From UHGV virus genome UHGV-0151214: a stretch of DNA of 12,009 bases; one strand, written 5' to 3'. A program made the translations under genes and the position numbers. Below the pieces are notes generated by a model. The model was not told where the DNA came from and searched no databases. It saw only the letters and a list, made by a program, of their open reading frames with translations. Source of the DNA: a virus. This document shows positions 1 to 12,009 of this stretch, piece by piece (position 1 is the stretch's first letter; every line of letters starts with the position of its first letter).

Positions 1-1488
1 GACCCTTATGCGCAAGCTGGAGAAACAATTGGCGGGTATTTAGTTCCAGGAGTTGGAACGGCAGGAAGCATGGCTATAGGATCACTGGCAGAAGCCGCAA
101 ACCAGAAAGGCGATTTCGCGCAAAATGCAGCCATAAACGCCGGAGTTAACCTTGCCGCTCAGGGTGTTCTTTCCGCAGCAGCAAAGGGAATAGGGCGTGG
201 AATAACGGCTATAAAAGGCGATATCGCGCCAGAAGTAGCGAAAAAAATTGCCACCTCAGAATCGATGGGCGTGACACCTATGACATCTGATGTTATCCAG
301 CCGAAAAATGCTTTCACTCGCGGTCTTACTCAGGATGCCGAGGGGGCTTTGCTCGGGACAGGCTCAAAGCGAGCGGAGCAATATGCAACGCGTAGTAAGT
401 TGGTAAGTAATTATTTTGACCGTTTTGGTGAGTACAACCCGGATGATGTGGTGAAATCTCTGACCACCACGTTAAGGGGACGGAAGGATGCCGCTGGCGC
501 TGTTATCAATGACGTCACCAATAAAATGGGTAATGCCGCAGTTGATACCACAAATACCATGAATGCTCTGAATACAGCGATCGCAAGACAGGAACGGCTT
601 GGGACGTCTGCCAATCAAAGCCTGCTTACATCCTTGCGTAACCTACGTGAAGAATTAGCAAACCCTGCAACTGATTTGGATGTTACGTTTGATCTCTTGC
701 GTCAGCACAGAACAGCATTTAGATCTAATGTTCAGGGAGATGCTATGGTCTTCCCCAACCAGGCAAAAGCAGCTACCAATATGGTAGAGAATGCAATGTC
801 AAAAGACCTTCGTAACGCAGTTGCTAAAAACCTCGGTGCATCAGACGCAGCAAAATACCTTAAAGCAAATTCCGATTATGCAAACGTTTATAATAAGGTG
901 CTTAATAAAAACATTGCTAACAAACTCAACAAGGCAAGCAGTGAAGCCAGTCCTGAACTTATAAATACCGTTGTATTAAGCAGAAAACCATCTGACGTGA
1001 AACGAATCTGGAGCGCACTGGATGATAAAGGGAAAGATGCTATGCGTGCAGCTTACGTCAGCAAAATAGCGGAAAAGGCCGGTGACTCTCCAGCCAAGTT
1101 CATCACTGAAGTTAATAAGCTGAAATCTCAGTCAGGCGGTGAAATTTACAACACTATTTTTTCTGGAAAGCACATGAAAGAACTTGATGCTCTTCATGAA
1201 GTTCTACAGCAAACAGCAAGGTCAGACACCGCAAATGTAGTAACTCAGACGGGGCAATCGCAAGCCAACAGGATAAGGACGATTGGCGCAACTGCGACTC
1301 TTGGCGTATCAATGGGGCTTGAGGCTGGTTTCGGTGCAATGATGCGCTTGTATGAATCCAAAGCAGCAAGGAATGCTCTCTTACGCTTGGCAAACACCAA
1401 AGCAGGAACACCAGCCTATGAAAGAGCGCTAAATAATGCTGCGAATGCCATCAGACCGCTGTTTGCTACTGAGGCAACACAGCAGTGA
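1..1488 (+). CDS. DNA ejection (injection) protein, P22 gp16-like, 5'-partial; the reading frame is open from base 1 so the true start is upstream of the window
   Basis: Frame 1 has no stop from position 1 to TGA at 1486-1488 (at least 495 codons in window). The product is Ala/Asn/Lys-rich and low-complexity, typical of P22-type ejection proteins. It sits immediately upstream of an mnt/arc/ant region and tailspike, where P22 has gene 16. Assignment is by composition and synteny only. Confidence 0.55.
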
Positions 1489-1985: not shown

Positions 1986-2351
1986 ATGAAAAAAGTTAAC
2001 ATTGGAAACGTACCAAAGATGCTCGTTCCGCTCTTTGAGAGCGGTACAATTGTGTTTTGTAGAGACTTTCCAGAATGGCAACGCCTGCATCAAAAACTTG
2101 GCGTTGACGTGCATGACTCGGACGCCAACGGAGCGTCTCATACAATGAGTAGCGAGAATGGTGTTTTGCATGTGATAGGCGTGTTCAATGGCAAACTATC
2201 TACTATTGCCCATGAGTGCGCTCACATGGCATTCGATATCTGCTCAAGGGTAGGTGTTGATGTTGAACCAGGAAGAGCCAACGAGACTTACTGCTACTTA
2301 ATGAGCAGGCTTGTTGAGTTCTGCGAGCGACATATCAAAAAGCCGGAGTGA
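1986..2351 (+). CDS. Small (121 aa) hypothetical protein with an HExxH motif (TIAHECAHMAF); possible minimal zincin-like metallopeptidase fold
   Basis: ATG at 1986 with AGGA 4-5 nt upstream; clean 121-codon ORF. The HExxH sits in a predicted helical context with Glu residues 14-20 aa downstream as possible third ligand. No family recognised by eye. Confidence 0.6.
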   Translation: MKKVNIGNVPKMLVPLFESGTIVFCRDFPEWQRLHQKLGVDVHDSDANGASHTMSSENGVLHVIGVFNGKLSTIAHECAHMAFDICSRVGVDVEPGRANETYCYLMSRLVEFCERHIKKPE

Positions 2352-2410
2352 ACCGGCTTGATTATTACTTTTTGCTGTCTGGAGTTCGCTTATCCAATAC
2401 CCAGCCATGA

Positions 2411-2647
2411 CCTGGCTTTTTAGCAACTGCAGATCGCACAATCAATGTTCCATTCCACGGAACAAATCTCTTTTTGGTCAGCATTAACAATGAACCTTAC
2501 GTTCCTATGAAACCCGTTGTAGAAGGCATGGGTATGGTTTGGGCTGCTCAATTTGTTAAATTAAAACAGAGAGTTGTCAAAGGTATTTCGGAAATCGAAA
2601 TACCTTCTGCTGGCGGCGCAGGCTGCACCAAAAAAGAAACCAATTAA
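2411..2647 (+). pseudogene. Remnant of an antirepressor (Ant-like) N-terminal domain; no ATG start at the homologous N-terminus
   Basis: Frame open from stop TGA (2408-2410) to TAA (2645-2647). Translation TINVPFHGTNLFLVSINNEPYVPMKPVVEGMGMVWAAQFVKLKQ aligns with residues about 11-55 of the intact Ant encoded at 3960..4862 ([45 protein letters not shown]). Similarity ends after KLKQ and the frame terminates about 25 codons later. Confidence 0.55.
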
Positions 2648-2690
2648 TATATTTTTCATTTTGATTCCAAATAGTTATAGGATGAAAGTT

Positions 2691-2876
2691 ATGACCATAG
2701 AAGAACGCCTGAACAACATTGAGTTGAATCAAACCCTGCTTGACCAGCGACTTTCAGATCTTGAGCTTAAAGATCTAGATGCGCAAATATTAGAAGCAGA
2801 AGCCAAGCTCTCCAGCTTAAACCACCGTAAGAAGCAAATCCGCAATAGAATTACTCAGGGACGCGGAAGCCGTTGA
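2691..2876 (+). CDS. Small hypothetical coiled-coil protein (61 aa; alternative start ATG 2682)
   Basis: ATG at 2691 with AGGA (2679-2682) 8 nt upstream. Product MTIEERLNNIELNQTLLDQRLSDLELKDLDAQILEAEAKL... has heptad-like Leu spacing and a basic C-terminus. The TTG-initiated 100-aa version in the track overlaps the ant remnant and is less likely. Confidence 0.4.
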   Translation: MTIEERLNNIELNQTLLDQRLSDLELKDLDAQILEAEAKLSSLNHRKKQIRNRITQGRGSR

Positions 2877-2885
2877 AATCCTAGT

Positions 2886-3203
2886 CTATTTTTTCTCAGA
2901 GCTCATATTGTAATAGGTGGTATAAATAGAGATTGATTTCTGACATGCTTCAAGAAATTGCTGCGGAGTCATCCCAAGCCTTGCTTGCTCTGTAGTAAGG
3001 AATCTCTGTAAGAATTCATTCCCACCTGGCATGTTTGTAGATTCTTGGAATATTGCCATTTGTTTGATTGCACCACACATACCAGCCATTTTCGAAGCTA
3101 TCATGAGGCCTTGTATTTCATCAAAACTGCTATCGTCTGATTTTGTTTCTGCGTTAGCTATGCTCGAGAGACACAGGAGCAATAGGATAGCGATGCGTTT
3201 CAT
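2886..3203 (-). CDS. Small secreted (periplasmic) protein, 105 aa, with cleavable signal peptide and two Cys in the mature part; co-transcribed and translationally coupled with mnt
   Basis: Minus-strand ATG (3203-3201) overlaps the mnt stop (3202-3200) as ATGA. N-terminus MKRIAILLLLCLSSIANA-ETK is a classic Sec signal peptide with an AxA cleavage site. Two Cys in the mature part could form a periplasmic disulfide. Confidence 0.6.
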   Translation of the reverse strand: MKRIAILLLLCLSSIANAETKSDDSSFDEIQGLMIASKMAGMCGAIKQMAIFQESTNMPGGNEFLQRFLTTEQARLGMTPQQFLEACQKSISIYTTYYNMSSEKK

Positions 3204-3451
3204 TTTTCACCGTTGCCATGCATACATTTTAACTTCTCAACCTCATGCTCAAGCTCTATCAACCGCGATGCTATAGTTGCAATATCTAGTGCTTGAATAT
3301 GTTTATTTTTTTCAGTCCATGCCTCAAGTGCTGCTACCATCTCAGCATTTAATGAACGAGAATTAGCCTCAGCCAGCTCAATAAGACGTTCCTTTATCTC
3401 TACAGGAAGCCTCAGATTCACTTGAGGGTTTTTGTACTTACGATCAGACAT
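3200..3451 (-). CDS. mnt: Mnt-like ribbon-helix-helix repressor (83 aa)
   Basis: NLRLPVEIKERLIELAEANSRSLNAEMVAAL matches the P22 Mnt N-terminal RHH region (NFRMPMEVREKLKFRAEANGRSMNSELLQIV, from memory). Same length as P22 Mnt (83 aa) and divergent from the arc-ant operon as in P22 immI. AGGA SD 8 nt upstream on the minus strand. Confidence 0.85.
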   Translation of the reverse strand: MSDRKYKNPQVNLRLPVEIKERLIELAEANSRSLNAEMVAALEAWTEKNKHIQALDIATIASRLIELEHEVEKLKCMHGNGEK

Positions 3452-3488
3452 CGGCGCATCCTGAATAATTATTTACCACAGGATATGT

Positions 3489-3537
3489 AGGTATCTATTG
3501 ACTATCAATGCGTACCTAAATACTATGTATGCGTACC
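3489..3537. promoter_or_regulatory. Divergent promoter/operator region between mnt and arc: candidate rightward promoter (TTGACT, 17-bp spacer, TACTAT), an overlapping 29-bp imperfect dyad, and two 9-bp direct repeats
   Basis: -35 TTGACT at 3498-3503, a 17-bp spacer, -10 TACTAT at 3521-3526, about 30 nt upstream of arc ATG 3557. Dyad AGGTATCTATTGACTATCAATGCGTACCT (3489-3517) matches its reverse complement at 20 of 29 positions and is centred on the -35. ATGCGTACC occurs at 3508-3516 and 3529-3537 (21-bp period). Confidence 0.45.
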
Positions 3538-3556
3538 ACATACAGCGGAGGATGCA

Positions 3557-3697
3557 ATGAAGGTAAAAACACTGCGTATGCCAGAGAAGTTAGAAAAAAT
3601 CCTTGAAGAGAAAGCAAAGGAAGAGTGTCGCTCATTTAGCGCAGAAGTAATTAAACGGGTGTTGGACAGCCTGAAAAGAGAGGGGATAACAGTATGA
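3557..3697 (+). CDS. arc: Arc-like ribbon-helix-helix repressor (46 aa)
   Basis: [46 protein letters not shown] aligns with P22 Arc (…RWPREVLDLVRKVAEENGRSVNSEIYQRVMESFKKEG, from memory). GGAGGA SD upstream of ATG 3557. Below the ORF-track size cut-off, found by manual translation. Confidence 0.8.
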   Translation: MKVKTLRMPEKLEKILEEKAKEECRSFSAEVIKRVLDSLKREGITV

Positions 3698-3897
3698 GTA
3701 AAGAATGTTGTTTCTGCGGCATTAGCGAATCAGACGCTGATCAAACATACATTTACTCTAAAGAAACAGGTCGGATGCTGTGTAGTGACTGCGTGTTGGA
3801 CATCATAAGATACAAGCATCTTGGATGTTCTGCCAGCATTAGCAATATAGGTGAAGTATACGAAGGGAAAGATATAACTGATAGAGCAGAAAGTTGA
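3694..3897 (+). CDS. Hypothetical small Cys-rich protein (67 aa; possible zinc-ribbon-like), translationally coupled to arc
   Basis: ATG 3694 overlaps the arc stop (3695-3697) as ATGA. Cys at positions 5, 6, 8, 30, 33 and 45 (CCFC … CSDC … C). It lies between arc and ant where P22, as remembered, has a short intercistronic region. Coding status uncertain. Confidence 0.4.
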
Positions 3898-3959
3898 AGC
3901 CCCAACTGCGGGAACAGTCAGGGCTTCGGTTGTCAGTAAATCCGTGGAGAAAAACCAAC

Positions 3960-4862
3960 ATGAATAGTATAGCAATTTTAGAAGCAGTGAACACCTCTTA
4001 CGTACCATTCAACGGTCAGCAAATTATCACCGCCATGGCTGCCGGAGTTGCATATGTTGCGATGAAGCCAATCGTTGAAAACCTTGGAATGAGCTGGTCA
4101 ACGCAGCAAACAAAACTCATGAAGCAGATTAGCAAATTCAACTGTGTTCATATGAACATGGTTGCCGCTGATGGGAAGCTTCGTAAGTTACTCTGCCTTC
4201 CTTTGAAGAAGTTAAATGGATGGCTGTTCAGCATCAACCCTGAGAAAGTTCGTGCTGACATCCGCGATAAACTGATTCAGTACCAGGAAGAATGCTTTAC
4301 TGTGCTGCATGACTACTGGACAAAGGGAAAGGCAGAAAATGCACGTAAGAAAACATCTGTTGATGACAGGACTCCGCTTCGTGATGCTGTAAATATGCTG
4401 GTCAGCAAAAAGCATCTAATGTACCCAGAAGCTTATGCAATGATTCATCAGCGTTTCAATGTGGAAAGTATTGAAGAGCTTGATGCATCTCAGATACCGC
4501 AAGCCGTAGAGTACATCCACAGGGTAGTGCTTGAAGGTGAGTTCATCGGCAAACAAGAAGAGTTACCAGCGCCGAAACTGGATATTAACTTCCCGATTTC
4601 ATGGTTTGCTGAAAATGCACCTTACGCCATTATCAGGCAGCAATGCGGTGATACTGTTGCTCTTGACCGCAGCGCACTCGTTGAATGCAGTCCGGCGTAT
4701 AAACTAATCGATATTCTGACAAAAGCGGGGTATGACGTTTCAGCAGTAAGAGCCGAGCTAAAAGCACTTCGCCATTTAATGGCTGAGCAAAGCTGGGCAC
4801 TTAAAGAGATAGCTTCATTCGCAGCGATACGTGATAGAGCGTGCCACTCAATTAAACTTTAA
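3960..4862 (+). CDS. ant: Antirepressor Ant (300 aa), P22 Ant-like
   Basis: Downstream of arc in the same orientation. ATG 3960 preceded by GGAG; 300 aa, the same length as P22 Ant. Its N-terminal domain is duplicated as a remnant at 2411..2647. The track's upstream start at 3894 overlaps the preceding ORF and lacks an SD. Confidence 0.8.
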
Positions 4863-4985: not shown

Positions 4986-7928
4986 ATGACAGACATTACA
5001 GCCAATGTTGTAGTGAGTATGCCATCGCAACTCTTCACTATGGCACGTTCTTTTAAAGCCGTAGCCAATGGAAAAATTTATATCGGTAAAATTGACACTG
5101 ACCCGGTAAATCCTGAAAACCAGATTCAGGTTTGTGTAGAGAACGAAGACGGTTCTCACGTTCCTGTTTCGCAACCAATCATTATTAACGCTGCTGGTTA
5201 TCCGGTATACAACGGACAGATTGCCAAGTTTGTAACCGTGCAAGGCCATTCTATGGCTGTTTACGATGCTTATGGGGCGCAGCAGTTCTATTTTCCTAAT
5301 GTGCTGAAGTATGATCCTGATCAGTTACGGCAGCAATTAGAAGACCCAGATGGAGCGAATAAATACCCAAAACTTCAGATAGCAAGATGGAGAGACAGTT
5401 ATGATGTAAGAGGTTGGGGGGCTATTGGTGATGGTGTTCATGATGATACATCAGCTCTATCAGAATTACTTTCTGTTGCAACAGGTGGTGAAAAGATAGA
5501 TGGGCGAGGGCTTACTTTTAAAGTATCAACTCTTCCAGATGTCAGTCGATTTAAAAATGCTCGTTTTTTATTTGAGAGAATACCGGGTCAGCCTCTTTTT
5601 TATGCTTCTGAAGATTTTATCCAGGGAGAGTTATTTAAAATTACAGATACACCGTGGTACAACGCCTGGACGCAGGATAAAACGTTTGTATATGACAATG
5701 TCATCTATGCGCCTTTTATGGCTGGAGACCGCCATGGTGTAAATAACCTCCATGTTGCATGGGTTCGCTCAGGAGATGACGGGAAGACCTGGACAACGCC
5801 GGAATGGCTTACAGATTTACATGAAAACTATCCCACAGTTAACTATCACTGCATGAGTATGGGGGTTGTCAGAAATCGCCTTTTTGCTGTAATTGAGACG
5901 CGGACCGTGAGCGGAAATAAACTGCAGGTTGCAGAGTTGTGGGATCGCCCAATGAGTCGCAGCCTTCGCGTTTATGGTGGTATAACGAAAGCAGCAAATC
6001 AGCAAGTCGCTTATATTCGCATTACTGATCACGGATTATTTGCTGGTGATTTTGTCAACTTCTCAAACTCTGGTGTTACAGGTGTTACCGGGAATATGAC
6101 GGTGACTACTGTTATTGATAAAAATACCTTTACAGTTACGACGCAAAATACCCAGGATGTGGATCAGAATAACGAGGGTAGATACTGGAGTTTTGGTACA
6201 TCATTTCACTCGTCACCATGGAGAAAAACCAGTCTTGGAACTATTCCTTCTTTTGTTGACGGAAGCACTCCTGTTACTGAGATTCACAGTTTTGCGACGA
6301 TTAGCGATAACAGTTTTGCTGTTGGCTACCATAATGGTGATATTGGTCCACGCGAGCTTGGGATACTCTATTTCTCTGATGCTTTCGGTTCTCCTGGTAG
6401 CTTTGTTCGCAGACGCATACCTGTAGAATATGAGGCGAATGCATCTGAGCCATGTGTAAAATATTATGATGGCATTCTGTATCTGACGACCAGGGGGACA
6501 TTAAGTACTCAACCCGGTAGTTCATTGCACAGAAGCTCTGATTTAGGTACATCATGGAATTCTCTTCGCTTCCCAAATAATGTTCATCACTCAAACCTTC
6601 CTTTTGCCAAAGTTGGCGATGAGCTGATTATTTTTGGCAGTGAGCGCGCATTTGGTGAGTGGGAAGGAGGAGAACCTGATAACCGTTATGCAGGAAATTA
6701 TCCAAGAACATTTATGACCAGAGTTAACGTCAATGGGTGGAGTCTGGATAATGTAGAGTGGGTTAATGTTACTGATCAGATTTATCAGGGCGGAATAGTT
6801 AACTCTGCGGTTGGTGTTGGTTCAGTTTGTATCAAAGACAACTGGCTGTACTACATTTTCGGTGGGGAAGACTTTCTAAACCCATGGAGCATAGGGGATA
6901 ACAACAGAAAATATCCTTATGTTCACGATGGTCACCCGGCTGATTTGTATTGTTTCAGGGTGAAAATTAAACAGGAAGAATTTGTTTCAAGGGATTTTGT
7001 CTACGGAGCCACTCCTAACAGAACGCTTCCTACTTTTATGTCGACGTCAGGCGTGAGGACGGTTCCTGTACCCGTTGATTTCACAGATGATGTTGCCGTC
7101 CAGTCACTGACTGTCCATGCAGGTACATCAGGACAAGTTCGCGCGGAAGTCAAACTTGAGGGTAATTACGCCATTATTGCGAAGAAAGTACCGTCTGATG
7201 ATGTTACCGCTCAGAGATTAATCGTTAGCGGCGGTGAAACAACGTCTTCAGCAGATGGTGCAATGATAACGTTGCATGGTTCCGGAAGCAGTACTCCACG
7301 TCGCGCGGTATATAACGCACTCGAACATCTTTTTGAGAACGGAGATGTTAAACCTTATCTTGATAATGTAAATGCTCTTGGTGGTCCGGGAAACAGGTTC
7401 TCGACAGTTTATCTTGGCTCCAATCCTGTGGTTACCAGTGACGGAACATTAAAGACAGAGCCGGTCTCTCCTGACGAAGCATTGCTGGATGCCTGGGGTG
7501 ACGTCAGGTATATCGCTTATAAATGGCTGAACGCTGTCGCTATAAAGGGGGAAGAAGGGGCGAGGATACATCATGGTGTAATCGCGCAGCAACTTCGTGA
7601 TGTTCTTATTTCTCACGGACTCATGGAAGAAGAAAGCACAACATGCCGCTATGCCTTTCTTTGCTATGACGATTATCCCGCAGTATATGATGACGTCATT
7701 ACTGGCCAAAGGGAAATGCCGCTGACTGATAATGACGGGAGCATCATTGTTGATGAGGATGATAATCCAGTGATGGTAATGGAAGACATCATTGAGCGCG
7801 TTGAAATAACGCCAGCAGGATCTAGATGGGGGGTCAGACCTGATCTCTTATTCTATATCGAGGCAGCATGGCAGCGCAGAGAAATGGATAAGATAAAAGA
7901 GCGGGTTCAGTCTCTGGAAGAACGTTAA
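4986..7928 (+). CDS. Tailspike protein (980 aa): P22-type head-binding N-terminal domain, sialidase-like catalytic region with two Asp-boxes (probable endosialidase, GH58-like), and C-terminal self-cleaving chaperone domain (peptidase S74-like)
   Basis: N-terminal about 110 aa ([11 protein letters not shown]…[22 protein letters not shown]…VLKYDPDQ) closely matches the P22 gp9 head-binding domain. Asp-boxes SGDDGKTW (aa 262-269, nt 5769-5792) and SSDLGTSW (aa 517-524, nt 6534-6557). [15 protein letters not shown] motif is also present. The C-terminus has S-DGTLK (Ser818 at nt 7437-7439) and [11 protein letters not shown], resembling the autoproteolytic chaperone domain of endosialidases and tail fibres. 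Confidence 0.85.
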
Positions 7929-7954
7929 AAAAAAGCCCGCAAAATATTGCGGGC
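7927..7954. terminator. Hairpin terminator at the tailspike 3' end; the U-tract is on the minus-strand side, so it is stronger for leftward transcription
   Basis: A8 run (7927-7934), then stem GCCCGCAA (7935-7942), loop AATA, stem TTGCGGGC (7947-7954). On the minus strand this reads hairpin plus T8. On the plus strand the hairpin is followed by ATCAAAAACGG. Confidence 0.5.
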
Positions 7955-8234
7955 ATCAAAAACGGAGTTGGTGAAAAGTTATCTTTGAATTCTATCATGA
8001 ATCAGTACGTATTTTAAATACATGTTCAGGTTTATTACACCATAGCATTATTAAATACAAAATTAAGTCTATGGTTCCTGTACAACTGCCCCCACTCTGC
8101 TGGCTCGTTCTGTAAAATCATTAGTACTTTTATTGAGATATATGATATGGAACAATAATGATTCATATATGGTTTACTATGCGGGTTTAGTCATCAATAA
8201 TTGACTGGCTTATAGATAGTAAACAGGAGAAAGT

Positions 8235-8639
8235 ATGTCTGCTCAAGTAACAAGTGAGCAATTAAATCAGTTGCTTAGTTTTGGTTCTCTTGCTGCAGTT
8301 ATTGCAGGTGTCCCTCCGGAGGTTGCTTTAGGGGCTTTGGCTGGGGCGGTAATTTTTGTTACCTCTGCAGTAGAGTACCCTATCCGTCGCCGGGTGCTCC
8401 TGTCGATGCTCAGCTTTCTTTGCGGCCTTCTCTTTTACAAACCAGCAGCATCAATTCTTATCGGCATAGCCAGCCTGATCCCTACCATCACGCAGGACTC
8501 TTTTGAAAAAGGGATTGTTTTCTCTGCAGGCGCATTCGTGTCAGCAATTGTCGCTGTGCGTATTGGTATATGGCTCTATCACCGTTCCGATAATCCACGC
8601 GAGTTAATTCCGGGGAGAAAAGACGATGGTAACGCATGA
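8235..8639 (+). CDS. Holin-like or antiholin-like membrane protein (134 aa, about 4 hydrophobic segments, charged C-terminal tail)
   Basis: ATG 8235 with AGGAG 7 nt upstream. Multiple TM-length hydrophobic stretches and a charged C-terminus ([19 protein letters not shown]). First gene of a cluster with a second holin-like gene, endolysin and spanins. Confidence 0.5.
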   Translation: MSAQVTSEQLNQLLSFGSLAAVIAGVPPEVALGALAGAVIFVTSAVEYPIRRRVLLSMLSFLCGLLFYKPAASILIGIASLIPTITQDSFEKGIVFSAGAFVSAIVAVRIGIWLYHRSDNPRELIPGRKDDGNA

Positions 8640-8934
8640 GTTTTTTTTGCTTATCACTAATGCAGTTATTTGCACTGGCATAGCAATTCGCGTTGTCACA
8701 TTCCGGCGTAACGGCTCTCAACATCGAAGGTGGGGAGGATGGCTTGCTTATTTCCTGATTGTTGCTGCGGCCAGTATTCCTGTTCGAGTCGCCTATGCAA
8801 TCTGGTTACGTACGCCAATGGCTGTGGATTTATCTGAGGTCATTATCAACGCTGTCATGCTGGCTGCGGTTATTAAAACGCGCGGTAACGTCGTTCAAAT
8901 TTTTAAAGTATCGAGGTCTAAACATGGAGATTAA
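8626..8934 (+). CDS. Putative holin (102 aa, 3 TM segments, basic C-terminal tail)
   Basis: Three hydrophobic segments and C-terminal [19 protein letters not shown]. Overlaps the preceding gene by 14 nt and the endolysin start by 11 nt. Confidence 0.6.
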
Positions 8935-9553
8935 ACAATTCCAGCGAGCTGCTGGTATCAGCGAGGCACTGGCCGCACGCTGGTTCTCGCATATAACTTC
9001 TGCGATGAAAGAGTTTGGTATCAGCAAAGCAGAAGATCAGGCAATGTTTATTGCTCAAGTCGGGCATGAGTCTGGGGGCTTCACCAGGTTGCAGGAGAAT
9101 TTCAACTACAGTGTCAGCGGACTGGCTAACTTCGTTCGGGCTGGGCGTCTCACTCAGGGGCAGGCTAATGCACTGGGGCGCCGTGCTGGTGAACCACCAT
9201 TGCCACTTGAGCGCCAGCGCGCGATCGCAAATCTGGTATACAGCAAACGCATGGGGAACAATGCCCCTGGTGATGGCTGGAATTACCGAGGGCGCGGACT
9301 TATCCAGATTACCGGTTTGAATAACTATCGTGATTGCGGAAACGGTCTGAAGGTTGACCTGCTGGAGAGCCCTGAACTGCTGGCGCAGGACGAATATGCG
9401 GCTCGTAGCGCGGCGTGGTTCTTCGCCAGCAAAGGATGCATGAAGTATACCGGCGATATTGCACGTGTAACTCTGATTATCAATGGTGGCCGGAACGGCA
9501 TCGACGACCGGCGAGCGCGGTACATCACTGCCAGTAAGGTGCTGGCGGTATGA
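8924..9553 (+). CDS. Endolysin, glycoside hydrolase family 19 (chitinase-like phage lysozyme), 209 aa
   Basis: GH19 signatures [12 protein letters not shown] (catalytic Glu in HES), a second Glu in LQENFNY, and [19 protein letters not shown] 8924 preceded by GAGG. The track's longer version from 8759 reads through the holin in a frame with no lysozyme similarity. Confidence 0.85.
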
Positions 9554-10032
9554 TCTGGGCATTCGTAAAAGCATACTGGAAACAGTTTCTTATCGTGGCA
9601 GTGCTTGCTGTTCTGGTCATATCAGGAGTGGTTGCCTGGAATATACACGGCAGTCGCCAGTACGATGCCGGGTATGCTCAGGCGGAAGAAGACCGCAAAG
9701 CCGAAGAAGACAAAGTTCGTCAGTACTACGAACAGGAGAAAGTGACCAATGAACGTGAAGCTCAGCAGAGGATCGACCAGGCGCGCAATGATGCTCTTGA
9801 TGCTGCCGCTAGCGCTGGCCGGTTGCAGCAACAACTCTTTGCCATCCGTGAGCAGCTCAGGCAGTATAACGCCATTGTCGGCGCTGGGTCGTCAGCCGCA
9901 GACACCGGAGTTTTGCTTGCCGACGTGCTCAGCAAATCTCTCGAGAGAAACAGACAACTGGCAGAGTATGCTGACCGGGCAGCCGAAGCCGGAAGAGTCT
10001 GCGAAAAACAGTACGACACTTTGACCAGATAG
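9550..10032 (+). CDS. i-spanin (Rz-like inner-membrane spanin subunit), 160 aa
   Basis: ATGA overlap with the endolysin stop. N-terminal TM ([18 protein letters not shown]), a long charged coiled-coil periplasmic region, and a Cys near the C-terminus. Sits immediately after the endolysin and contains an embedded lipoprotein ORF. Confidence 0.75.
9788..10024 (+). CDS. o-spanin (Rz1-like outer-membrane lipoprotein), embedded in the +1 frame of the i-spanin gene
   Basis: [13 protein letters not shown] has a lipobox (LAGC) and a signal-peptidase II site. The mature part is about 58 aa, Ser/Pro-rich with additional Cys. It lies entirely within 9550..10032 in another frame. Start taken at ATG 9788; the track's 9749 start adds an unlikely N-terminal extension. 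Confidence 0.65.
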   Translation: MMLLMLPLALAGCSNNSLPSVSSSGSITPLSALGRQPQTPEFCLPTCSANLSRETDNWQSMLTGQPKPEESAKNSTTL

Positions 10033-10184
10033 CATGGCATTTTTCATGGTACTGATTTCCGGTGACGGTATATAAAACGGTACGGGAAAAATTGAGATTT
10101 GGAAAAATGTTATCACTCAATTGGTTATGGTTATCGTAAATAATTGAGTGGAATGATTTGACCCTGCACTATGAATGAACAAAA

Positions 10185-10210
10185 CCCTCTGTTACTACAG
10201 AGGGTTTTTT
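10185..10210. terminator. Bidirectional rho-independent terminator between the lysis cassette (+) and the convergent minus-strand operon
   Basis: Stem CCCTCTGT (10185-10192), loop TACT, stem ACAGAGGG (10197-10204), then T6 (10205-10210). Preceded by AAAA, so it is usable from both strands. Confidence 0.7.
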
Positions 10211-10248
10211 ATACTCACGAATCATAGGCTTGAAGTTACTGACATCGC

Positions 10249-10788
10249 TTAGTTAAACCAGCTGTCCGATTTGTTCTCTTCTGCTTTGCCCACGCTTTTC
10301 ATCAGATCTCGACCGCCCTCAGTCATATTCCTGTTTGCGTCAGCTTCAGATTGCACCACATCGGTTTGCGCAGCTTTGTGCTTCAGTTCCTGATCGATAA
10401 ATTCGTTTTCTCGCTTAACGCGGGCTTCTTCTTTCGCCAGCGCCAGTTTTTGTTTCTGAATCTCTAAGCTGCGTAGCTCATCTTCATAACTTTGATCGCG
10501 TTTTTTGTCCGCAGAGGCTTCGGCGTCCAGTTTATCCTGACGAGCTTTCTTATTTGCCGCTGCCGTTGCCGCTCTTTTGTTAGCGGCGGCCTGGGCGTTT
10601 GCGCGACGTTGCTTCTCTTGCTGGATTTCCCTGTTGCGCTCCGCGACCCATTCGTCATGCTGCCTTTGCTCTTCATTTTTACCTTGCTGTTCCGCTTCTG
10701 CGACAGCAGAGAGTTGATCCTGCAATGATGAGGCGATAGCCGGATAGCTTAAGGAGGCTAAGATGGCGCAAAGAAAAACTTTCTTCAT
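10249..10788 (-). CDS. Secreted Lys/Glu/Ala/Gln-rich (coiled-coil-like) periplasmic protein, 179 aa, with signal peptide
   Basis: Strong GGAGGAG SD upstream of the minus-strand ATG. N-terminus MKKVFLCAILASLSYPAIA-SS is a Sec signal peptide. The rest is highly charged and helical (…QQEKQRRANAQAAANKRAATAAANKKARQDKLDAEASADKKRD…). Lies 16 bp downstream of the lipoprotein gene on the same strand, so probably an operon. Confidence 0.6.
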   Translation of the reverse strand: MKKVFLCAILASLSYPAIASSLQDQLSAVAEAEQQGKNEEQRQHDEWVAERNREIQQEKQRRANAQAAANKRAATAAANKKARQDKLDAEASADKKRDQSYEDELRSLEIQKQKLALAKEEARVKRENEFIDQELKHKAAQTDVVQSEADANRNMTEGGRDLMKSVGKAEENKSDSWFN

Positions 10789-10803
10789 GACTCCTCCTGA
10801 TCA

Positions 10804-11322
10804 TTAGCTCTTTTCAGGACATTTGGTATTTGGCTGAATACGCGTTTCGTTATACGTCGTGGTAATAACAACGGCTAAACCTGTCGTAAACTGGCACTCT
10901 TTACCCACCTGGGTGGAGGTATACACTTTGGTGCCTTCCTTATACGTTAGAGAAACACCTTCCACTAAGGTTTTATCATTCACCATAGAACCCGCTGCCG
11001 CGCCAACAGCTCCGCCGCCAACTGCACCTGCCGTCGTTCCGGAATTGCTGCCAGACCCGACGTTGTGGCCAATAACACCGCCAGCGACTGCACCAATAAG
11101 CGCGCCGAAGGCTTGTGCGTTTCGTTTATTTTGGGAGTTGTCTACGGCAACTTTTGCGGGAAGAATGGAAATAATATTAACGGTTTTAGTTTCTTGTTTG
11201 GTATTCAGTTGATCGGTTTGATAAACATCGGCGGCATGATCATCAGCATTTGACTGGCATCCTGCCAGAGTGAATGACGCTAACATTGCCACAGGCAGAA
11301 GACATTTTTTAAATTTCATCAC
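10804..11322 (-). CDS. Outer-membrane lipoprotein with glycine-zipper region (SlyB/Pcp/YcfJ-like family), 172 aa
   Basis: Lipobox FTLAGC after a signal peptide. Gly-zipper segment GALIGAVAGGVIGHNVGSG…AGAVGGGAVGAAAG resembles the glycine-zipper motif of YcfJ/SlyB-type lipoproteins (recalled, not searched). AAGGA SD 7 nt upstream. The upstream region 11323-11510 is strongly AT-rich. Confidence 0.65.
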   Translation of the reverse strand: MMKFKKCLLPVAMLASFTLAGCQSNADDHAADVYQTDQLNTKQETKTVNIISILPAKVAVDNSQNKRNAQAFGALIGAVAGGVIGHNVGSGSNSGTTAGAVGGGAVGAAAGSMVNDKTLVEGVSLTYKEGTKVYTSTQVGKECQFTTGLAVVITTTYNETRIQPNTKCPEKS

Positions 11323-11632
11323 TATTCCTTGTTATACACATTACGAAAAATAAGACATTTAAGATCATCAAAAGAGGAAAGTAAATGTATTGCGTATAAA
11401 GGAATAGATTAAATTTATTAAAATTCATGTGGAAAATAATTTATAAAAATACATCATTAAAACATATGTATTAATTTTATATTTATTTCGCAGCCAAACA
11501 GGATAAACATCAGTCAGGACAAAGACGTAAAATTTAAGATGAAAGAATATCTGCCGCTTTGATAATCCCAAAGAGCAAAAGCATCCGACAGCGAGGTGCC
11601 GTTATGTTCTGTGAAAGTGGAGAAGGTAACCG

Positions 11633-11806
11633 CTAACGTTGTACCGGTGATTCGACGGAGAGTGTGGATTGCTGAGCTTCTTTTTTGCTCTGATGGTGCT
11701 GCCATGCACCGACGGACGAGTAGATAAAACGGCCAAAGAAGAAGATAAAGCTGATGAGCAGTACGATACGGGTCATGCGACTGTTAAATCGGTGTCGTTT
11801 TCGCAT
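11633..11806 (-). CDS. Possible small membrane protein (57 aa from ATG 11806; alternative start ATG 11776)
   Basis: Minus-strand ORF encoding MRKRHRFNSRMTRIVLLISFIFFFGRFIYSSVGAWQHHQ… with one clear TM segment. The track start is GTG with no convincing SD. Coding status uncertain. Confidence 0.2.
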   Translation of the reverse strand: MRKRHRFNSRMTRIVLLISFIFFFGRFIYSSVGAWQHHQSKKEAQQSTLSVESPVQR

Positions 11807-12009
11807 ACTGGTTGCCTGACTCACAAAAGGTTCCTTGATGTATGTCCCACGCTGTGGACGGTACTTACATTAAGGCACAACAGGACAAAATGGTCAATTC
11901 TTCGTTATGTAAAAAAGCGTCAGTGGATACATATTTTAATGTTATGGAAGTTAATTTAATTATTTACAATGATGATGTAATAATGATGAATTAACATGAT
12001 AAACGTAAT

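Follow-up and report, generated by a model that had tools for sequence, protein, structure and literature searches.

The virus genome UHGV-0151214 was analyzed over a stretch of 12,009 nucleotides (nt), in the following called the window, which is the immI or "ant moron" region of a P22-like Escherichia coli prophage with a K1 endosialidase tailspike. On its minus strand, the gene for the maintenance repressor Mnt is followed by an open reading frame (ORF) of 105 amino acids (aa), the start codon of which overlaps the mnt stop codon. This ORF is an uncharacterized prophage cargo gene on the transcript of a secondary-immunity repressor, and as such it is of a known kind and not a new system. 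The evidence tips in favor of a genuine "moron", an accessory gene that shares a transcription unit with mnt and is translationally coupled to it, and the product of which is exported and protects the lysogen at the cell envelope.

3200-3451, minus strand: mnt-like maintenance repressor of 83 aa, Arc/ribbon-helix-helix (RHH) type (PF03869, phrog_795)
2886-3203, minus strand: predicted exported protein of 105 aa (phrog_19844), with the putative signal peptide encoded at 3150-3203 and the mature part at 2889-3149
3200-3203, minus strand: ATGA stop/start overlap, made up of the mnt stop codon TGA (3202-3200) and the start codon ATG of the 105-aa ORF (3203-3201)
3207-3211, minus strand: weak Shine-Dalgarno-like GGTGA within the last mnt codons, 3 nt 5' of the ATG of the 105-aa ORF

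Overlap of mnt with the downstream gene

The ATGA overlap had been described in the initial annotation and is present in the window as listed. For comparison, 85 related loci (designated by L numbers) were gathered from public phage, prophage, and metagenome sequences and analyzed by script. An overlap of exactly 4 nt with the stop codon of an RHH/Mnt gene is found in 45 rows, or 35 distinct loci once 10 duplicate contigs are set aside. It occurs behind at least four types of Mnt alleles, namely the window type with 83 aa, the P22 type with 84 aa, the Kapi1 type with 78 aa, and a type with 82 aa, and the overlapped copies span subtypes of the 105-aa protein with 100, 72, 71, and 65% identity. 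Even a P22-like prophage of Vibrio fluvialis has the same ATGA overlap, with a homologue that is 44% identical and a Mnt tail that differs (..YKDRK and stop). Because the overlap has been kept in this number of distinct loci, with several Mnt alleles and in a Vibrio prophage, it represents more than chance.

Differences in the ribosome-binding sites point in the same direction. All overlapped copies have only a weak site 5' of the ATG (GGTGA, GGACG, or GGGTG), whereas copies located apart from mnt (Kapi1 type, L011-14, and Yersinia) have strong sites (TAAGGAGG, GGGAG, or AAGGAG) and in many cases start with GTG. This is the pattern that translational coupling predicts. Furthermore, no promoter-like or terminator-like site is found between mnt and the 105-aa ORF in the window sequence, which agrees with the earlier proposal that the ORF belongs to the transcription unit of mnt. 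The pair shows the features of coupled genes, i.e., location on the same strand, overlap, a weak site of its own for the downstream gene, and a conserved arrangement. Re-initiation, and with it translational coupling, can be inferred from these sequence features, and the coupling is better supported than could be known at the time of the initial annotation. Compared with shuffled controls, the RNA around the junction has less structure (z=+2.4). A structure hiding the start codon of the 105-aa ORF was therefore rejected, and the unstructured junction suggests that coupling would proceed via termination and re-initiation and not via unmasking of a hairpin.

A comparison of the junctions of L002, L007, L015, L022, and L024 with positions 3204-3230 of the window showed that the final ~8 mnt codons (..MYG[KN]GEK and stop) accompany the 105-aa gene across differing Mnt alleles, including P22-type Mnt. 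As these codons move with the 105-aa gene, the recombination boundary of the module lies inside mnt. A truncated mnt 5' of the L056 copy was considered and dismissed, as the similarity extends over only ~20 nt.

The 105-aa protein and its family

The N-terminus of the 105-aa protein (MKRIAILLLLCLSSIANA, followed by ETK) consists of a charged n-region (MKR), a hydrophobic core (IAILLLLCLSSI) with a Kyte-Doolittle value of 3.15, and an A-x-A site (ANA before E), and it has no lipobox. These parts agree with the sequence criteria for Sec-dependent export and cleavage by signal peptidase I, and the signal peptide proposed in the initial annotation is thereby corroborated as a prediction. The protein would be exported via Sec and cleaved after ANA18. 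For the homologue Kapi1_059, the depositors' annotation reads "DeepTMHMM: signal residues 1-22". The mature product has 87 aa, a mass of 9.8 kDa, and an acidic pI of ~5. It contains the two cysteines already pointed out earlier, C43 and C87, which are conserved across the family; a third cysteine lies within the signal peptide.

The protein is annotated by PGAP as a hypothetical protein (WP_000820796.1) and matches the uncharacterized profile phrog_19844 (E=1.1e-69 over residues 1-105 of 105). No match was obtained in Pfam, NCBIfam, or PADLOC (0 families), either for the protein or for 65 relatives; among the relatives, two isolated chance hits were the only exceptions in Pfam at E<0.01. A sequence-profile search of the PDB returned a single chance hit (E=0.71). 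A literature search on orf59a, hkcC, and the RefSeq accession yielded nothing relevant. A word-indexed search gave just 11 close clusters; a profile search of 1.84 billion representatives gave 256 clusters (50% identity) at E<=1e-3, 167 of them at E<=1e-10. Family members are nearly all ~100 aa long with a signal peptide and two cysteines: an N-terminal hydrophobic segment is present in 106 of 107 members, and exactly two core cysteines in 101 of 107. Domain fusions in longer members were rejected: the extra length goes back to start codons called wrongly or to low-complexity tails and, in one case each, to a tandem duplication and a lipoprotein version, without any informative fusion. Named members, all "hypothetical protein", come from E. 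coli, Salmonella, Citrobacter, Morganella, V. fluvialis, Pseudomonas fragi, and a metagenome-assembled genome (MAG) of Halioglobus.

In the alignment of 65 sequences, C43, Q53, E72, R75, and C87 are invariant and K38, G41, G44, F52, T56, G61, F64, R67, F68, and Y94 nearly so. The family motif G-x-C-G...F-Q-x-x-T-K-x-x-G-G-D-x-F..R-F..T-E-x-A-R is completely present in the window protein. Pairwise ratios of non-synonymous to synonymous substitution rates (dN/dS) of 0.10-0.23 indicate that the ORF encodes a protein under purifying selection. With a deep alignment, AlphaFold predicts a three-helix bundle (predicted local distance difference test, pLDDT, 93; predicted template modeling score, pTM, 0.77) with helices at residues 6-38, 43-58, and 62-85 of the mature chain, in which a disulfide between C43 and C87 would probably connect helices 1 and 3. 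Among the fold-search matches there was no specific solved structural relative.

P22-like prophages always have the gene on the mnt strand, in the interval from mnt to gene 16. In the Citrobacter prophage L007, the order is mnt, the 105-aa homologue, and the gene for a type-B SieA of 204 aa (RYPGEA motif, 25% identity to P22 SieA), which directly follows the homologue on the same strand. In L017, a lipoprotein of 161 aa (MKKSLLIIPLLLAGC.., 4341-4826) follows directly downstream on the same strand, and in L015 this position is taken by a Rap1a-family gene (4329-4676; PF18602, E=5e-17), a family conferring immunity to amidases of the type VI secretion system (T6SS). These same-strand downstream partners are all envelope proteins. 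The 161-aa lipoprotein recurs 3' of the 105-aa gene, as it is found in L017 and also in L011-14, L031, and L033-42. The Rap1a-family gene in the P22-like prophage L015 may be an orphan prophage-borne T6SS immunity gene.

The association with repressor genes extends beyond this phage group. In L084, the whole insert between gene 16 and the tailspike gene consists of an RHH gene and a gene of the 105-aa family, 16 nt apart and without an antirepressor. In the siphovirus L058, a family member is located behind an Arc/Mnt-like gene in an immI-like module, and in the Yersinia prophages L061/62 directly behind a Mnt/Arc-type repressor. The lambdoid-type contig L080 has a family member near, and convergent with, a CI-like repressor gene, and in L056 a member lies 3' of a 163-aa gene that is divergent from a cro/YdaS-like gene. 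Further members adjoin an integrase or reside in other integrative elements, and in 17 of 82 rows the family member is away from any RHH gene. Among complete E. coli genomes, 54 of 5,426 (~1%) carry the 105-aa gene, always on the chromosome, and every one of the matches listed also touches an Arc-family gene annotation. Carriers include O104:H4 2009EL-2071, enterotoxigenic E. coli (ETEC) isolates from pigs, and chicken isolates; E. coli CUPS04 and LR883012 also have the arrangement with mnt.

The mnt transcription unit and its surroundings

The repressor encoded upstream of the 105-aa gene matches PF03869 (E=3.1e-10, residues 7-50) and phrog_795 (E=9e-24). It is 92.7% identical to the CUS-3 mnt product ECRS218_0005, the gene of which adjoins arc/ant, and its residues 8-78 align with P22/ST64T-type Mnt at ~43% identity (tblastn). 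The C-terminal tetramerization domain PF11423 (Repressor_Mnt) was not reported for it at E<=0.1. CUS-3 (L001, 1665-3240) has two tandem mnt-like genes, the first of the window type and the second of the P22 type with PF11423. As in P22, mnt is divergent from arc-ant, with a palindrome and facing promoter-like sites between them:

3452-3556, no strand: mnt/arc intergenic control region, laid out like that of P22, for which overlapping Pant/Pmnt and operators are annotated (BK000583)
3508-3480 and 3497-3468, minus strand: promoter-like sites, Pmnt candidates by sequence
3498-3526, plus strand: promoter-like site, Pant candidate by sequence
3484-3522, no strand: inverted repeat with 18-nt arms, operator candidate by sequence

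By analogy with P22, this region would have promoter and operator activity. The 105-aa gene is antisense to the late operon (gene 16, tailspike), which makes the lysogenic promoter the most plausible source of its expression. Downstream of the gene, the following features are found:

2682-2876, plus strand: convergent ORF of 64 aa (phrog_7586), the Kapi1_061 equivalent of which has an XhlA CDD note
2474-2647, plus strand: ORF of 57 aa, an apparent fragment resembling the N-terminal domain of Ant, 5' of the 64-aa ORF (BLASTP, 50% identity to the window's own Ant)
2365-2420, minus strand: remnant of the 3' end of P22 orf59a (ending in KPGHGWVLDKRTPDSKK and stop), from an alignment with P22 and E. 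coli CUPS04
2340-2359, minus strand: hairpin with T-run, matching the P22 terminator annotated for mnt except for one loop base

By its likeness to P22, the hairpin probably terminates the mnt transcription unit at a distance of ~1.15 kb from the promoter. The unit would then probably comprise, in this order, mnt, the 105-aa gene, an antisense stretch across the 64-aa ORF and the ant-like fragment, the orf59a stub, and the terminator. A transcript from the mnt promoter would accordingly be antisense to the 64-aa ORF, which has 96% DNA identity to Kapi1. The remnant corresponds to the last ~55 nt or ~18 codons of P22 orf59a; together with the hairpin (2340-2420) it marks the site of cargo insertion or replacement between mnt and the ancestral terminator.

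A contrast with P22, for which a monocistronic mnt had been assumed in the initial annotation, does not hold. According to the curated record of P22 (BK000583), orf59a comes before the terminator labeled mnt, and the same terminator has been kept in the window. Nor does a comparison with CUS-3 and Kapi1 set the window apart, as cargo genes are present behind mnt there, too. In CUS-3, these are four same-strand genes, i.e., the second, P22-type mnt, a 199-aa ORF, a YafO-like toxin gene, and hkcB. In Kapi1, a different ORF of 69 aa overlaps mnt by 4 nt and is followed by genes for two signal-peptide proteins, one of which is a 47% identical homologue of the 105-aa protein. In phage L, the terminator is located immediately 3' of mnt. 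The region is known as the highly variable "ant moron" (PMC2629481; PMC8022706). Cargo behind mnt is the rule and not a novelty, and the 105-aa gene adds to the cargo of a locus known to be variable.

The wider surroundings of the unit are as follows:

70-1488, plus strand: gene-16-type DNA transfer protein, followed by a set of small accessory ORFs before mnt
3557-3697, plus strand: arc (PF03869), divergent from mnt
3694-3897, plus strand: ORF of 67 aa (phrog_7150) between arc and ant
3894-4862, plus strand: ORF of the antirepressor gene ant (PF10547, E=3e-45)
4986-7928, plus strand: tailspike with a P22-type head-binding domain, K1 endosialidase domains fused to it, and an S74 chaperone, a combination shared with CUS-3

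The true start of ant is probably an internal ATG of its ORF. The K1 endosialidase tailspike suggests that the host of the phage is probably a K1-capsulated E. coli. Downstream of the tailspike gene (7929-12009), a lysis cassette with two holin-family ORFs, a GH19 endolysin, and a DUF2514 Rz-like ORF is followed by two minus-strand genes of the envelope type, one for a DUF5384 protein and one for a glycine-zipper/TraT-like lipoprotein. This part of the window shares 95% identity with Escherichia phage TL-2011b and 99.5% with vB_EcoP_ZX5, unlike the gtr/att/int arrangement of P22, which indicates that the phage is a mosaic. Adjoining gene 16, at the position of sieA in P22, a minus-strand ORF of up to 221 aa (1506-2171) with one hydrophobic segment is a further candidate for an envelope cargo gene. 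PGAP annotates it with 122 aa in E. coli CUPS04 (WP_001334102.1), it has no match in Pfam, PHROG, PADLOC, or NCBIfam, and it overlaps a plus-strand ORF of 121 aa (phrog_1365) at 1986-2351.

Possible functions and known systems

In the favored scenario, transcription would start at the mnt promoter, run antisense to the late operon, and end at the P22-type terminator at 2340-2359, both promoter and terminator being deduced from P22. Ribosomes finishing mnt at the UGA would restart on the overlapping AUG, aided by the weak GGUGA, and the 105-aa protein would be made in step with Mnt, i.e., in the lysogenic state and probably in small amounts. Sec would export the precursor, and cleavage after ANA18 would leave an acidic bundle of 87 aa, the fold of which is predicted confidently and which a putative C43-C87 disulfide would lock. 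In the periplasm, it would most likely bind a conserved envelope target via the polar residues K38, Q53, T56, R67, E72, and R75 and the GG[DN] loop. As the least supported step, the lysogen would be protected by a block of a periplasmic DNA-entry step of superinfecting phages, alongside or in place of SieA.

By analogy, an envelope-protective role, be it superinfection exclusion or immunity, fits the neighbors of the gene. Phage exclusion is ranked first because of the partnership with SieA and the history of the locus: in P22, the locus holds sieA, which blocks DNA injection (PMC10883804), and in BTP1 the same locus yields a lysogen-expressed exclusion RNA (PMC7067206). A specific mechanism is not backed by any homology or fold match in Pfam, NCBIfam, PADLOC, or the fold searches.

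Several points weigh against this scenario. As the RNA at the junction is unstructured, the start codon of the 105-aa ORF could be usable independently of mnt translation. In RNA-seq of Kapi1 lysogens, mnt (Kapi1_063) was below the detection threshold (PMC12922286), and an mnt-driven product may therefore be scarce; sieA is likewise poorly transcribed. For this reason, the initial expectation that the protein is made whenever Mnt is made is sustained by the shared unit and the conserved overlap only with the reservation that expression may be very low. Kapi1_059-062 are missing from the list of undetected genes (PMC12922286), which hints at a separate promoter for the downstream cargo of Kapi1. 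Polar surface residues are strictly conserved across phages of different tail types from Vibrio, Pseudomonas-like, and enterobacterial hosts, which argues for a conserved host or small-molecule target over fast-evolving ejection proteins. This weakens the version in which P22-type DNA entry is blocked, and identical copies of the 105-aa protein co-occur with gp16 variants that are just 30-100% identical.

A conserved binding surface across genera and phage types would also fit a target that does not belong to phages. The 105-aa protein might thus be an immunity protein that neutralizes a toxin delivered to the periplasm, such as a T6SS peptidoglycan hydrolase, a bacteriocin, or a lysozyme, and that protects in bacterial competition and not against phages. 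The protein is small, predicted to be periplasmic, all-helical, and probably disulfide-bonded, which is also true of Rap1a/Tai4-type proteins, and in L015 the Rap1a-family gene (PF18602) lies immediately 3' on the same strand. None of 65 family members matches PF18602, however, and in none of the loci was a cognate effector gene observed close by. Taken by itself this explanation has a rather low probability; compared with phage exclusion it is not far behind.

Classical lysogenic conversion, in which the protein would modulate fitness or virulence of the host by altering an envelope function (stress response, adhesion, serum resistance), appears improbable. It would be in line with the occurrence of the gene in pathogenic lineages such as O104:H4 2009EL-2071, ETEC from pigs, and chicken isolates, with the K1-capsule-specific phage and its endosialidase tailspike from which the window derives, and with the two further envelope-type genes (DUF5384, glycine-zipper/TraT-like) on the minus strand beyond the lysis cassette. 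However, only 54 of 5,426 complete E. coli genomes carry the gene, the family also occurs in environmental taxa (Halioglobus MAG, P. fragi, Vibrio), and no link to any virulence family was found. Still less probable is an accessory of the phage's own life cycle that reports the envelope state to the lysis-lysogeny decision or modulates the phage's lysis or ejection proteins, since the tight and recurrent link to RHH repressors (including the two-gene L084 module lacking an antirepressor) and the ~8 mnt codons accompanying the gene across Mnt alleles are set against a periplasmic location without a direct route to the cytoplasmic repressor circuit, many P22-like phages without the gene (including P22, L, and CUS-3), and the 17 of 82 rows in which members are away from any RHH gene.

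Protection of the lysogen at the envelope is thus retained as the preferred explanation. A wider proposal, that the family of ~250 clusters is an unrecognized class of soluble periplasmic prophage protection factors that are tied to lysogeny repressors, their genes overlapping mnt in P22-like phages of E. coli through to Vibrio and adjoining RHH repressor genes elsewhere, and that block superinfection or periplasmic attack via a conserved envelope target, is put forward tentatively and is rather doubtful at present. If the protein is protective, a soluble periplasmic player would be added to the envelope defenses of P22-like prophages, of which the membrane protein SieA, O-antigen modification (gtr), and an antisense RNA are the only ones known so far. 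A function would then also be assigned to a family that ~1% of complete E. coli genomes carry, among them the O104:H4 outbreak lineage, and that is further represented in Salmonella, Citrobacter, Yersinia, Morganella, Vibrio, and Pseudomonas-type phages. Through its conserved overlap with mnt, the gene lends itself to simple tests of the link between cargo genes and lysogeny. At present, it stands as a hypothetical gene, well documented, at a site where such genes are known to accumulate.

Among known systems, SieA of P22 shares the locus between gene 16 and mnt as well as the mnt strand; it is expressed from the prophage and stops DNA entry at the envelope (PMC10883804). In contrast to the 105-aa product, which is a predicted soluble, exported helical bundle of 87 aa joined to mnt, SieA is a protein of 162-204 aa in the inner membrane with 3-4 transmembrane segments; it lacks a signal peptide and has its own putative promoter. 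There is no sequence relationship between the two, and the 105-aa protein has neither a further hydrophobic segment nor the FxRYPxEAxxFNK motif of SieA (PMC10883804). P22 orf59a and Kapi1_062 share the position in the mnt unit, and Kapi1_062 also overlaps the mnt stop codon by 4 nt, but their products are small, hydrophilic, devoid of export signals, and unrelated in sequence to the 105-aa protein. Lambda rexAB and BTP1 bstA share the principle of a protective gene that is located on a repressor transcript and expressed in the lysogen only (cI-bstA operon, PMC7067206). They are cytoplasmic or membrane abortive-infection systems behind cI, whereas the 105-aa protein would be exported and is encoded behind the secondary-immunity repressor gene mnt. 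The T6SS immunity proteins Rap1a/Tai4 (PF18602) are likewise small, periplasmic, and helical, and a Rap1a-family gene is the neighbor in L015; they differ in that no Pfam match was found in 65 members of the 105-aa family and in that they are absent from its fold-search matches.

The Spackle protein (Sp) of phage T4 is made as a precursor of ~97 aa with a signal peptide and becomes a small helical, disulfide-containing periplasmic protein, which excludes superinfecting phages by inhibiting the tail lysozyme. For an exclusion factor that is soluble in the periplasm, it would offer the best functional analogy. Should the wider proposal be true, the 105-aa family would be to temperate phages what Spackle is to T4, and it would extend over podovirus, siphovirus, and lambdoid prophages.

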